In this document: positions 26,345 through 31,240 of the stretch, piece after piece
How positions within the stretch are numbered: position 1 is the stretch's first letter
How the letters are laid out: each line of letters opens with the position of its first letter
Assembly: GCF_024298765.1 (NCBI RefSeq)
Contig: NZ_CP101210.1
Reading direction: 5' to 3' (one strand)
DNA from: Escherichia coli
GTDB lineage: Bacteria > Pseudomonadota > Gammaproteobacteria > Enterobacterales > Enterobacteriaceae
Length of the DNA: 64,000 nt
Notes under the pieces: generated by a model
Told to the model about the DNA's origin: nothing
The model's database searches: none
The model's input: the letters and a program-made list of their open reading frames with translations, nothing else
Made by a program: the position numbers and the translations under genes

Positions 26345-26379
26345 AACCGCTAATGGTCAGATTAGCGGTTATTTTGTTT
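26345..26379 (+). terminator. Rho-independent terminator after gpU
   Basis: Stem aaccgctaat / attagcggtt with a 6-nt loop, followed by attttgttt; overlaps the invertase 3' end. Confidence 0.5.
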
Positions 26380-26956
26380 CCTGACTCTTCTCTATTGTTC
26401 CGATTGATTCTCCTGCGGGGTGGTAACGATAAATCGTCGATATACCAATGCCGTAAATTATTGCCAGTTGTTTTCTGTCGTGCCCGTTTTTGATCAGCCT
26501 TGCTATTTGCTCATGCTGTTCTTTTGTCAGCTTCGGTCGACGTCCGCCTGTGCGCCCCCGTGCGCGTGCTGCCGCCAGTCCGGCCAGTGTACGTTCAACA
26601 ATTAATTCACGTTCCATTTCAGCCAGGGCACCCATCACGTGGAAGAAAAAACGCCCCATTGGAGAAGATGTATCTATGCTGTCGGTCAGACTGCGAAAAT
26701 TAATTCCTCGCTCCCGTAGTTCCCCGACGAGAGAAATCAGATGTTTCATGCTTCGCCCGAGGCGATCCAGTTTCCAGACAACCAACGTGTCACCTTTTTG
26801 AAGGCGCTTTAAAGTGCGTTTTAATCCCGGTCGGTCTGTCTTTGTCCCGCTTAATTTATCTTCAAATATTTGTTCACATCCTGCACAAACAAGAGCGTTT
26901 CGTTGCAGGTCTGTATTCTGGTCATTTGTTGATACCCTGACATAGCCAATCAGCAT
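26369..26956 (-). CDS. Serine recombinase, Gin/Hin/Pin/Cin-family DNA invertase
   Basis: MLIGYVRVSTNDQNTDLQ... catalytic Ser in the YVRVS motif, resolvase N-terminal domain, C-terminal HTH (IYGIGISTIYRY). Confidence 0.85.
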   Translation of the reverse strand: MLIGYVRVSTNDQNTDLQRNALVCAGCEQIFEDKLSGTKTDRPGLKRTLKRLQKGDTLVVWKLDRLGRSMKHLISLVGELRERGINFRSLTDSIDTSSPMGRFFFHVMGALAEMERELIVERTLAGLAAARARGRTGGRRPKLTKEQHEQIARLIKNGHDRKQLAIIYGIGISTIYRYHPAGESIGTIEKSQETK

Positions 26957-27009
26957 TCTGAATCTCCCGTCCAAAAGCGCAAATCATGCCATGCAGGCCA
27001 GAAACGGCC

Positions 27010-27035
27010 ATTATCTAAAACCTCGGTTTACAGGA
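27010..27035 (+). repeat. gix-like recombination site, left
   Basis: ttatctaaaacctcggtttacaggaa, a 26-bp site between the invertase gene and the alternative fibre segment. Confidence 0.7.
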
Positions 27036-27042
27036 AACGGTA

Positions 27043-28045: not shown

Positions 28046-28573
28046 ATGATGCACTTAAAGAACATAAAAGCGGGTAATGCTAAAACACTGGAACAGTATG
28101 AGTTAACAAAGAAGCACGGAGTCATCTGGCTTTACTCTGAGGACGAAAAAAACTGGTATGAGGAAGTGAAAAACTTTCAGCCAGACACCATAAAGATTGT
28201 TTACGATAAAAATCAGATTATAGTCGCTATCACCAGAGATGCTTCAACGCTTAATCCTGAAGGTTTTAGCGTTGTTGAGGTTCCTGATATTACCTCCAAC
28301 CGACGTGCTGACGACTCAGGTAAATGGATGTTTAAGGATGGTGCTGTGGTTAAACGGATTTATACGACAGATGAGCAGCAACAACAGGCAGAATCACAAA
28401 AGGCCGCGTTACTTTCCGAAGCAGAAAGCGTTATTCAGCCACTGGAACGCGCCGTCAGGCTGAATATGGCGACGGATGAGGAACGCGCACGACTGGAGTC
28501 ATGGGAACGCTACAGTGTTCTGGTCAGCCGTGTGGATACGGCAAATCCTGAATGGCCACAAAAGCCTGAATAA
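28046..28573 (+). CDS. Tail-fibre assembly chaperone, alternative copy
   Basis: 175 aa, N-terminus [14 protein letters not shown]..., paralogous to 28602-29135. Confidence 0.75.
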
Positions 28574-28601
28574 AAATTAAGGCCCGCTATCGGGCCTTGT
28601 C

Positions 28602-29135
28602 TCATTCAGGTTGTTCGGGAAACGTTACTGGCAGGCTGGAAGTGTCTGTAGATTCGACTTTCTGCGCAAAGAGCATCCACTCTGTTAATTTTTGTTTATT
28701 CTCGTCGGAAATGATGCCCAGCCGTAGCTGTGAGTCCCATAGCTGGGTTTTATCCCTGACGAGCTGTAGCAGGCTTTGCTTTTCATTTTCCGCCTGCTGC
28801 CTCTGCTCTTCCTCGGTATAAGTTCGCTTTACCACTACGCCATCTTTGAACATCCATTTACCCGAAATGTCAGCACGGCGATTTGCTGTAATATCAGGAA
28901 CCTCAACGACGCTTGCGCCTTCTGGATTAATTGCTGAAACATCCTTTTCAATACAAATAATAACGTCGTTGTGGTCATAGACCATTTTCAACGTATCAGG
29001 CTGAAAGTTCTTTTGTTCCTCATACCAGTTTTTCCCATCCTCTGTATAAAGCCATTTGATGTTAAATTGTTTCGTTAGCTGGTATTGTTCTTTTGTTTTA
29101 GGGTTGCCAGCAGTAATATTTTTTAAGTGCATCAT
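28602..29135 (-). CDS. Tail-fibre assembly chaperone (P2 G homologue), active orientation
   Basis: 177 aa, MMHLKNITAGNPKT..., directly downstream of H. Confidence 0.75.
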   Translation of the reverse strand: MMHLKNITAGNPKTKEQYQLTKQFNIKWLYTEDGKNWYEEQKNFQPDTLKMVYDHNDVIICIEKDVSAINPEGASVVEVPDITANRRADISGKWMFKDGVVVKRTYTEEEQRQQAENEKQSLLQLVRDKTQLWDSQLRLGIISDENKQKLTEWMLFAQKVESTDTSSLPVTFPEQPE

Positions 29136-29137
29136 CG

Positions 29138-31240
29138 TTAAATACTCCCCGCGTTATACCACGTTCCATTAATGCAATACTGAATTGGCCTTGCCTGAGT
29201 TGTATCAATTAATGCATCACGGTTTCCGTTAACTGAACCCGTAACGACATAACCTGACCTGTCAGACCAGCCGGGACCATTCCATGTCTGAACAGATGAC
29301 AGACCGCCAAGGCGAATACCTGTAATAAACCTTGAGTTACATTCTGCCTGCGTATATGCACCAACATCTCCCGCAGAGGGTTTGCGGGTCGTGGTGTAAA
29401 ACTCTGACCAGTCAGCCTCAAATCCATAACCATCACGCGCTGAACGATAAAAAATACCGCCGTTCCTGTAATTCACGCGGAACTGTACAGCAGGGCAGCT
29501 CCCCGTATTCATATTGAAGTGGAGGATTAATGTCGATGCGCCACCAATGTTTGCGTTATAGACCCCGCTATTCCAGTTCCAGCCAACAGCTTTATCATTT
29601 CCGACAGTGCTTCCTGTTTGCCCTAAAGCAAATGCAGGTTGTTGATTTTTCGTGTTGTAGTCTCGTCGCCAGCCAGGAGCATAAGCATCACCATGATTAA
29701 TATAAGTGAATTGAGCGTTAGTAATTCCGCCACCGCTGGACGTGCTCGGCGTAGTAACGCGTATGGTCATTGCGCCGCGAGTGCCAATAACTTCCACCAC
29801 AGCACCTGCAAGACAAATATTTCCGCAACCTGTATCTGTAATGACCTTATTATTTGCATAAGCCCATGAGCCTTTGCACATCCAGTAAGGATGGTTAAAT
29901 GCTCCCTGACTCTCCAGCCACGAAATAAATTGCGCAGTTGTCCAGACCTGACTATCGCCACCAATATTCAGCCATGCGCTATATGCGCGGCAGGCACCAA
30001 TGTTTTTGGTGAAGGTATCTTTTCCCGGAATATCTGCGCCGTTCTGGTTTTTCTGTAATGCGCCAGAAGCCTGATTTACCGTTTCCTGTAAACCGAGGTA
30101 TTCGATAACGGCAGCAACGGTCGATTTCGCAAGAATATCCCGCCCGACTTTTGTCAGGGTTGCCAGGCTGGCGACATCATTCCCCGTAAAATACGGAAAC
30201 TTGTCTGCCGCAGTAGCAAGCCCGGCCAGCGCCGTCAGGGTGGCATCTTTCGGTTGCTTACCCGCAAGCGCGTTAGTCATGGTGGTCGCAAAATTCGGGT
30301 CGTTGCCCAGCGCCGCCGCCAGCTCGTTCAGCGTGTTCAGTGCGTCAGGTGAAGAGTCTACAAGTGCGGCAATCGCGGCCATAACAAAAGCCGTGCTTGC
30401 GATTTGGGTATTATTCGTTCCCTGTTGTGCAGTTGGTGTTGTTGGCGTTCCGGTCAGTGCCGGGCTGTTTAATGGGGCTTTCTTGTTCGTTTCATCCATT
30501 ACCGCCTTAACCGCTTTTGGTGTCGCTGCCAGCGTTTCAGACGTGCTGTTGGTTGCACTGCTGAGCTGGACTATCCCTTTTCGTGCCGTCGTGGCGTCCT
30601 GAGCGGTATATTTTCCGTTAGCCAGGTCATACGCGGCCTTAACCGCTTTCGGCGTTGCAGCCAGCGTTTCAGAATCGCTGTTAGTGGCGCTACTGAGTTG
30701 AACAAAGCCTTTTGCGGTCAGCGAGGCGTCCGGGTGACGTCGTGACTGTTCATGCTCTTTCAGTTTGTCATCCACGTAATCCACTGTGGCCATCACCATG
30801 GTGTTATCCACGGTAAGCGCCACGGTGGCAGTGCTGGATACGGTCAGAATAGTGCGAAATGTTTGTGCACGTCCGGACCCTTCGGCAACGGTTGGTTTGT
30901 AACTTTCGGCAGTATTGCCCACCGCGATTAAATCGCCGTGCTCATCAAATACACCAATTTCCCGGATCCAGAATCCGCCCGTTTCAGGAGGAATAACCAG
31001 CTCCGCAATAATGCGGTTCTGATGTGTTGCGTCCAGGATGACGCGATTAACAGTGTGTCGCCACACCTCATGCACCAGACGGGTCTGCTTACTGTCTGGT
31101 GTGGGCAACGCGCCGCCACCGTCGCCCACGGCCATATGAGTCAGGCGGACAGGCTTACCATCTGGCGCGGCTACCTGAGCTAATTTTTTTGCACCCGTAT
31201 CGGTGATAACGGTTTTAAATTTTCGTGTTGTGGTACTCAT
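29138..31240 (-). CDS. Tail fibre protein (P2 H homologue)
   Basis: 700 aa; conserved N-terminus (...TVITDTGAKKLA...MAVGDGGG), repeated collar motifs, variable C-terminus inside the invertible segment. Confidence 0.85.
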   Translation of the reverse strand: MSTTTRKFKTVITDTGAKKLAQVAAPDGKPVRLTHMAVGDGGGALPTPDSKQTRLVHEVWRHTVNRVILDATHQNRIIAELVIPPETGGFWIREIGVFDEHGDLIAVGNTAESYKPTVAEGSGRAQTFRTILTVSSTATVALTVDNTMVMATVDYVDDKLKEHEQSRRHPDASLTAKGFVQLSSATNSDSETLAATPKAVKAAYDLANGKYTAQDATTARKGIVQLSSATNSTSETLAATPKAVKAVMDETNKKAPLNSPALTGTPTTPTAQQGTNNTQIASTAFVMAAIAALVDSSPDALNTLNELAAALGNDPNFATTMTNALAGKQPKDATLTALAGLATAADKFPYFTGNDVASLATLTKVGRDILAKSTVAAVIEYLGLQETVNQASGALQKNQNGADIPGKDTFTKNIGACRAYSAWLNIGGDSQVWTTAQFISWLESQGAFNHPYWMCKGSWAYANNKVITDTGCGNICLAGAVVEVIGTRGAMTIRVTTPSTSSGGGITNAQFTYINHGDAYAPGWRRDYNTKNQQPAFALGQTGSTVGNDKAVGWNWNSGVYNANIGGASTLILHFNMNTGSCPAVQFRVNYRNGGIFYRSARDGYGFEADWSEFYTTTRKPSAGDVGAYTQAECNSRFITGIRLGGLSSVQTWNGPGWSDRSGYVVTGSVNGNRDALIDTTQARPIQYCINGTWYNAGSI
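30083..30108 (+). repeat. gix-like recombination site, right (inside the tail-fibre gene)
   Basis: ttcctgtaaaccgaggtattcgataa; reverse complement matches the left site at about 23-24 of 26 positions; encodes IEYLGLQE in H. Confidence 0.7.

Follow-up and report, generated by a model that had tools for sequence, protein, structure and literature searches.

Does the tail-fibre operon of the prophage carried in this 64,000-nucleotide (nt) stretch of Escherichia coli DNA (contig NZ_CP101210.1; the window hereafter) contain a DNA-inversion switch of the kind that sets host range in phage Mu, and does that switch still turn? The locus combines a Gin/Hin-family serine invertase gene, two gix-type crossover sites and, between these sites, two opposed sets of fibre-tip and chaperone genes. 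We read it, with a probability of roughly 93%, as a Gin/gix-type two-state inversion switch for host range in the tail-fibre operon of a P88-like E. coli prophage and, from the genomes compared, evidently as an active one. This reading is carried by the anatomy of the locus, by the identical core dinucleotides of its two sites, by the in-frame fibre fusion found in both states, and by precise inversion within the gix repeats, which has happened repeatedly. An initial annotation, made from the window's sequence, had already proposed a switch of the Mu G-segment type, and that proposal is borne out by the homology of the cargo genes, an intact 721-amino-acid (aa) flip product, and natural inversion in the same lineage and in its relatives.

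The two crossover sites lie 3 kilobases (kb) apart. The invertase-proximal site (27011-27036, plus strand) is TTATCTAAAACCTCGGTTTACAGGAA, i.e., TTATCTAAAACC-TC-GGTTTACAGGAA, with one mismatch to both Mu gix sites, and the second (30083-30108, minus strand) is TTATCGAATACCTCGGTTTACAGGAA, i.e., TTATCGAATACC-TC-GGTTTACAGGAA, placed in frame within the 700-aa fibre gene (29138-31240, minus strand) at ...AAVIEY/LGLQETVN..., where it encodes (V)IEYLGLQE. Both are 26 base pairs (bp) long, imperfectly dyad-symmetric around the same asymmetric 2-bp core (TC) and in inverted orientation, as is typical of invertase-family sites; they differ from each other by two mismatches in 26 positions, which both fall in the outer half-site, and from Mu gix by one and two bases. 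The initial annotation had described inverted repeats with about 2-3 differences, one of them in frame in the fibre gene (IEYLGLQE), and had called for their alignment to gix; all of this stands, including the coordinates of the fibre-gene site, whereas those of the proximal site had been given as 27010-27035 and were off by one base. As in Mu, the inverted repeat is longer than the sites and reaches 34 bp; counted more loosely, it spans 65 nt at 78% identity, with a perfect stretch of 25 nt. Across the window there are only two gix-type 26-mer matches, with none expected from 100 dinucleotide-preserving shuffles. Extra crossover sites, which would make the locus a shufflon, were sought over the same 64 kb with the full site (at most 3 mismatches) and with the 12-bp core (1 mismatch); only the two sites were recovered, and the locus is therefore a two-state switch, not a shufflon.

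The cargo has the full G-segment architecture, with a constant fibre N-terminus outside the segment and two opposed C-termini inside it, each followed by its own chaperone. The constant part (Sc; 30098-31240, minus strand, 381 codons) is of the P2 gpH type, and its residues 1-381 are 83% identical to P2 gpH residues 4-378. At the fibre-gene gix site the homology changes abruptly, with Mu homology ending exactly there: the current variable C-terminus (29138-30097, minus strand, 319 codons) is of the Mu S', or G(-), type and shares 316 of 319 aa (99%) with the variable part of Mu S', and the current tail-fibre assembly chaperone (28602-29135, minus strand, 177 aa; PHROG 136 at 1e-73) is of the Mu U' type, with 173 of 177 aa identical (98%). 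By these homologies, the orientation in the window is that of the Mu G(-) state. Facing this set is a silent alternative C-terminus of 340 codons counted from the crossover (27022-28044, plus strand), which has no start codon of its own and a frame that is open back to the gix site; its start-less open reading frame (ORF; 27061-28044, plus strand) comes into frame with the constant part after inversion. In aa, the silent tip shares 84% identity with the fibre tip of P88, 70% with the G(+) tip of Mu S and 46% with that of P2 H, and is followed by a silent chaperone of the Mu U/P2 G type (28046-28573, plus strand, 175 aa; PHROG 136 at 6e-78) that is 90% identical to both Mu U and P2 G. A current C-terminus and chaperone on the minus strand with an alternative pair on the plus strand had been proposed from the outset, and these can now be named as S'/U'- and S/U-type genes. 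Identity between the two tips is only 26%, and the DNA of the segment (27011-30108) is 88-93% identical to the Mu and D108 G segments, SfMu, and the P1 and P7 C segments. When 27023-30096 was inverted in silico, the silent tip came into frame behind the constant part to give an intact 721-aa fibre, such that the 700-aa and 721-aa fusions are both open.

Both orientations of the segment occur in public genomes. Counting a complete E. coli genome when at least 80% of the 5-kb locus was present, we found the locus in 131 of 5,426 genomes, 69 of them oriented as in the window and 62 as in the computed flipped form; the single best overall match, strain 8E at 98.6%, has the flipped form. Further, in each of two near-clonal pairs, GF8/GF161 and 2020N21-110-15/2020N21-110, 11 kb is identical save for a piece of 3,030 or 3,048 bp that is exactly reverse-complemented; this piece ends within the gix repeats on both sides, and the outer half-sites stay with their own flanks; GF8 and GF161 carry exactly the window's two site sequences. 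Public protein data contain exact copies of the 195-aa invertase, of the 700-aa fibre and of the predicted 721-aa fibre, and the record of phage P88 has collinear flanks around a segment of opposite orientation.

The decisive comparison comes from the window's own lineage and involves a second mutation. Directly upstream of the fibre gene lies a baseplate gene of the P2 gpI type (gene I; 31243-31772, minus strand) that has lost 1 nt at about 31443 (TT to T on the plus strand), which shifts the frame and truncates the 176-aa protein after about residue 110. A 12,166-nt sequence from assembly GCA_036612595.1 has the same deletion and is otherwise identical, being an exact substring of the window once this is flipped at the gix core. 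Another 12,166-nt sequence (GCA_037165025.1) is flipped at the gix core with gene I intact, and a 12,103-nt sequence (SRR18346039) has the window's orientation with gene I intact, both exact once the deleted base is restored. Together with the window, these sequences show either orientation with either gpI allele, four states in all that differ in nothing else; this calls for repeated inversion within a time too short for one substitution to arise in 12 kb, and inversion is therefore recurrent in the window's lineage. True inverted repeats and both orientations are thus on record, and the window's invertase allele, with its Thr48, accompanies both orientations in public assemblies. With its four 12-kb combinations, this comparison also illustrates cleanly how an active switch can be documented from public assemblies in place of reads.

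The enzyme expected to drive this inversion is encoded just outside the segment, as the initial annotation had it, by a gene (26369-26956, minus strand; true start, the ATG at 26956) that adjoins the proximal gix site. Its 195-aa product was classified with Pfam, PHROGs and PDB sequences in place of NCBIfam, in which the invertase matched only distant recombinase models, far under their cut-offs, and which offered no model for the fibre or chaperones. It matches PHROG 125 ("DNA invertase") at 2e-96, the Pfam families PF00239 Resolvase (5e-50, residues 3-135) and PF02796 HTH_7 (6e-13, residues 138-181), and, as its closest solved structure, Gin (PDB 4m6f, E = 1.4e-100); the DNA-binding domain of Hin (1hcr) also matches at 2e-12. 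An N-terminal resolvase domain with Ser9, a C-terminal helix-turn-helix and a length close to the family's ~190 aa place it among the serine recombinases. The N-terminal MLIGYVRVS ends in Ser9 and aligns this residue to S9 of Gin, the nucleophile, the role of which is described along with Gin biochemistry (PMC3575834). Also present is Met114, the wild-type, Fis-dependent residue, whose change to Val makes Gin Fis-independent.

Overall, 155 of 195 aa are identical to Mu Gin, and the differences are unevenly spread. Besides the start codon (GTG/ATG), residues 1-119 differ at two positions, K39R and T48A (window residue first). The DNA-binding domain (residues ~120-195; 26369-26600, minus strand) is only ~55% identical to that of Gin, and the DNA identity to gin falls from ~95% to ~50-58% past nt 360, though the gix sites are nearly as in Mu; the invertase gene is thus a mosaic in its own right. 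The exact allele was found on 15 public contigs.

Two control regions appear to be shared with Mu. The first 240 nt of the invertase gene (26717-26956, minus strand) match the 5' end of Mu gin at 230 of 240 nt (96%) and presumably hold a cis-acting, Fis-dependent enhancer (sis), which Kahmann et al. in 1985 are said to have placed in this 5' part of Mu gin. Several 15-mers that are conserved with Mu came up in a loose scan for Fis sites, for example with centres at nt 101 and nt 147 of the gene; no two of them formed a decisive pair at the expected spacing, so that none is claimed. Upstream, an intergenic leader (26957-27010, minus strand), ~88% identical to the Mu gixR-gin interval, is presumed to hold a weak invertase promoter running into the gix site, on the model of Mu.

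Following what is known of Gin and Hin biochemistry, invertase dimers would bind both inverted 26-bp gix sites, which would then be synapsed on supercoiled DNA with host Fis at the enhancer in the 5' end of the invertase gene. Ser9 would cut both strands at the central TC/GA, one dimer pair would rotate by 180 degrees, and the ends would be rejoined. As a result, 3,074 bp at 27023-30096 would flip, a breakpoint interval and a product that are both seen in the comparison with other assemblies. Translation of the constant part (aa 1-381) continues across the gix site into whichever of the two tips is in line, and each tip has its own chaperone behind it: at present a 700-aa fibre with a Mu S'-type tip and a U'-type chaperone, and after the flip a 721-aa fibre with a tip of the Mu S/P2 H type and a chaperone of the U/G type. 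A lysogen population would hence release particles of two receptor specificities. In Mu, G(+) phages infect E. coli K-12, and G(-) phages infect E. coli C, Citrobacter freundii, Shigella sonnei, Enterobacter cloacae, Serratia marcescens and Erwinia (PMC4406740).

Several points weigh against an active host-range switch in this prophage. First, that the two tips see different receptors is a prediction based on Mu, on how closely the current tip matches Mu S' (99%) and on how far the two tips have diverged. Second, the enhancer and the dependence on Fis are presumed from homology, a simple scan upstream of the invertase gene found no sigma-70 consensus, and the invertase has Thr48 where six compared relatives have Ala. 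Third, we infer switching in the source strain itself from its sister assemblies. Finally, given the frameshift in gene I, flipping may not matter for infectivity or host range in this prophage.

This last point bears on the reading that best survives beside an active host-range switch, and which we nonetheless consider very improbable, namely that the prophage is defective and its fibre module domesticated. If the deletion is real, the prophage is probably unable to make infectious particles, and the frameshift is present in both the window and GCA_036612595.1. In a lineage without infectious fibre-bearing particles, a module that still flips might be kept for the host, either through a fibre or chaperone product that in one orientation keeps other phages from adsorbing, for instance a fibre that masks their receptors, or through invertase acting in trans on further invertible prophage segments in that cell. 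Gin-family invertases cross-complement. There is also a precedent for the former in e14, where, for PinQ and StfE2, an adsorption block has been reported that is switched on by a recombinase and exerted by an inverted prophage fibre chimera (PMC12529663). The deletion does not look like general sequencing noise, being the sole true indel relative to strain 8E over 11 kb and shared with one other assembly, nor is it a widespread allele, as none of the 775 complete E. coli genomes with that stretch has it. Its absence from all of these genomes, and from sister assemblies that are otherwise identical, points to a frameshift that is recent and not a sign of long-term domestication; and the rest of the 37-kb prophage is collinear, at 96-97%, with P88, an inducible phage.

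Even less credible to us is a fossil switch, in which sites and invertase look intact and the segment is nevertheless locked in the S'/U' state here, whether by A48T, by non-expression or by a weakened site. Thr48 and the missing promoter consensus would fit such a state, as would the two mismatches in the outer half-site of the fibre-gene site, and SfMu, with a site change beside the core, showed no change of host range (PMC4406740). However, the same invertase allele and sites accompany both orientations on otherwise identical 12-kb sequences, one of which shares the gpI deletion, and the same two site sequences are present in GF8 and GF161, a pair that differs by inversion. Least likely of all is that the orientation differences stem from RecA-dependent recombination between the inverted repeats, or from an assembler's choice at the repeat, as might be suspected from a 25-nt perfect stretch in a 65-nt arm, a breakpoint that can be placed only within the shared stretch, and contigs that partly come from short-read assemblies: 25 nt of identity is a very poor RecA substrate, near 1:1 orientations in the 131 complete genomes and four states without substitution imply a high, invertase-typical rate, complete long-read genomes run across the whole 3-kb segment, which is unique sequence, and the enzyme encoded beside it is nearly identical to Gin, for which activity on such sites is established.

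The Gin/gix switch is a known system, belonging to the classical Mu G/P1 C/e14 P family, and its presence in P2-type phages is known too: prophages of the P88 type that carry this module are frequent and already annotated, and experiments have shown inversion in the P2-like prophages of enteropathogenic E. coli (EPEC; PMC4272514). The locus therefore adds little new biology, being another copy of the switch grafted onto a P2-type fibre gene, a mosaic that the genome census shows to be common in E. coli. It matters more for how genomes are annotated and compared. The silent, start-less tip gene is routinely labelled "hypothetical", "partial" or a pseudogene, and in strain comparisons a 3-kb inversion at this locus is to be treated as phase variation, not as a structural variant.

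The closest model is the G segment of Mu (Gin; S/U, S'/U', gixL/gixR and sis), which has the same tip-chaperone-chaperone-tip order, the same 34-bp repeat and an invertase just outside one site. Identity to the window counterparts is 99% for S', 98% for U', 90% for U and 70% for the S tip, with ~92% for the segment DNA. The window differs from Mu in that its constant fibre part, and the whole virion, are of the P2 type, and its silent tip is reported to resemble those of P88 and P2 H more closely than that of Mu S. P1 and P7 with their C segment and Cin, e14 with its P segment and Pin, and p15B with Min share the invertase family and the tip-plus-chaperone cargo (P1/P7 DNA at 88-92%) and differ in virion backbone; more than two sites occur in Min and in some regions of the Pin type.

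Among P2-like phages, P88 and the prophages 503458 and 520873 have a like operon layout, converging on the segment and the invertase, and P88 has the same gix sequences. P88 differs in the opposite orientation of its record, in its early and cargo regions, and in a constant fibre part that is 44 aa longer. All three were deposited with a "DNA invertase" and paired fibre and chaperone genes, and the P88 paper (PMC5285337) mentions neither inversion nor an invertase. In phages 503458 (L001, 9255-9280 and 11969-11994) and 520873, the gix sites are degenerate, with 2 and 4 substitutions, one of them in an inner half-site, and an IS100 insertion interrupts the sheath gene; these two are probably a decayed, locked version of the switch. 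As a separate observation on fibre length, the constant part in the window contains a 96-nt direct repeat of 76% identity (30504-30599 and 30636-30731; motif SSATNS..ETLAATPKAVKA), and it is here that length varies among relatives, including the extra 44 aa of P88 and about 150 additional bp in the 2020N21-110 strains.

Experimental precedent comes from the P2-like prophages of EPEC E2348/69, in which Goldberg et al. (2014; PMC4272514) found, by sequencing and polymerase chain reaction, invertible loci in both or all four states coexisting in clonal cultures. There, as in the window, an invertase and inverted repeats in a P2-like prophage alternate tail-fibre C-termini. The likeness is one of arrangement, and one EPEC locus has three repeats and four variants (a shufflon), whereas the window has two sites and two states. 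In Mu-like prophages, programmed inversions in fibre genes have been confirmed with long reads in a systematic survey (PMC9881135).

Classic P2 is closely related in its proteins, with an H whose constant part is 83% identical and a G 90% identical to the silent chaperone. It had been set apart at the outset as lacking such a switch, rightly so: in the P2 record H and G are followed by fun(Z), with no invertase, second site or second tip-chaperone set, and the F operon is not inverted relative to the V operon. Yet P2 H keeps a single orphan gix-like site, TTATCGAATATCTCGGTTTACAGGAA (NC_001895, 13857-13882), with one mismatch to the window's fibre-gene site. It lies at the homologous codon, exactly where the window's constant part ends and tip homology begins. 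With this orphan site, P2 looks like a relative fixed in one orientation.

The surrounding prophage spans ~37 kb between tRNA-Leu(taa) (15961-16047) and yecA (53655-54320), with a tyrosine integrase gene (52297-53298) at its yecA-side end. Its host is E. coli: over the window's first 15 kb, which cover the uvrC-fliC-fliD region, the sequence is 100% identical to several E. coli chromosomes, and the prophage is inserted between the glyW-cysT-leuZ tRNA cluster (15745-16047) and yecA. Escherichia phage P88 (Peduoviridae, Xuanwuvirus) is collinear with it, at 96-97% over the structural genes (blastn blocks across 19491-42901, plus early-region blocks), and P2-type Pfam families are present in the sister loci, both of which place the prophage among the P88-like Xuanwuvirus. 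In the layout of this group, the V-W-J-I-H and FI-FII-E-T-U operons converge on the invertible segment and invertase. The G+C content of the segment is ~0.46, against 0.55-0.59 in the adjoining tail genes, which fits a horizontally exchanged module.

Elsewhere in the prophage, two low-GC stretches are missing from P88. One is an insert (42883-45506, plus strand; G+C ~0.39-0.44) of three ORFs (42883-44358, 44369-44713 and 44697-45506), with the portal gene on one side and replication gene A on the other, which is the tin/old cargo position of P2. Searches of PADLOC and NCBIfam with these ORFs, and of Pfam with the first ORF alone, gave no match, and the insert may be unrecognised anti-phage cargo. 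The other is a 495-aa ORF (17873-19360, plus strand; G+C ~0.40) near the tRNA-side end of the prophage and adjoining a gpD-like gene (19491-20732); it had no match in Pfam, NCBIfam or PADLOC. Next to the switch itself, a bidirectional terminator-like hairpin (26345-26370), an inverted repeat with a 10-bp stem and T runs on both strands, separates the gpU-like tail gene (ending at 26333, plus strand) from the invertase gene (ending at 26369, minus strand).

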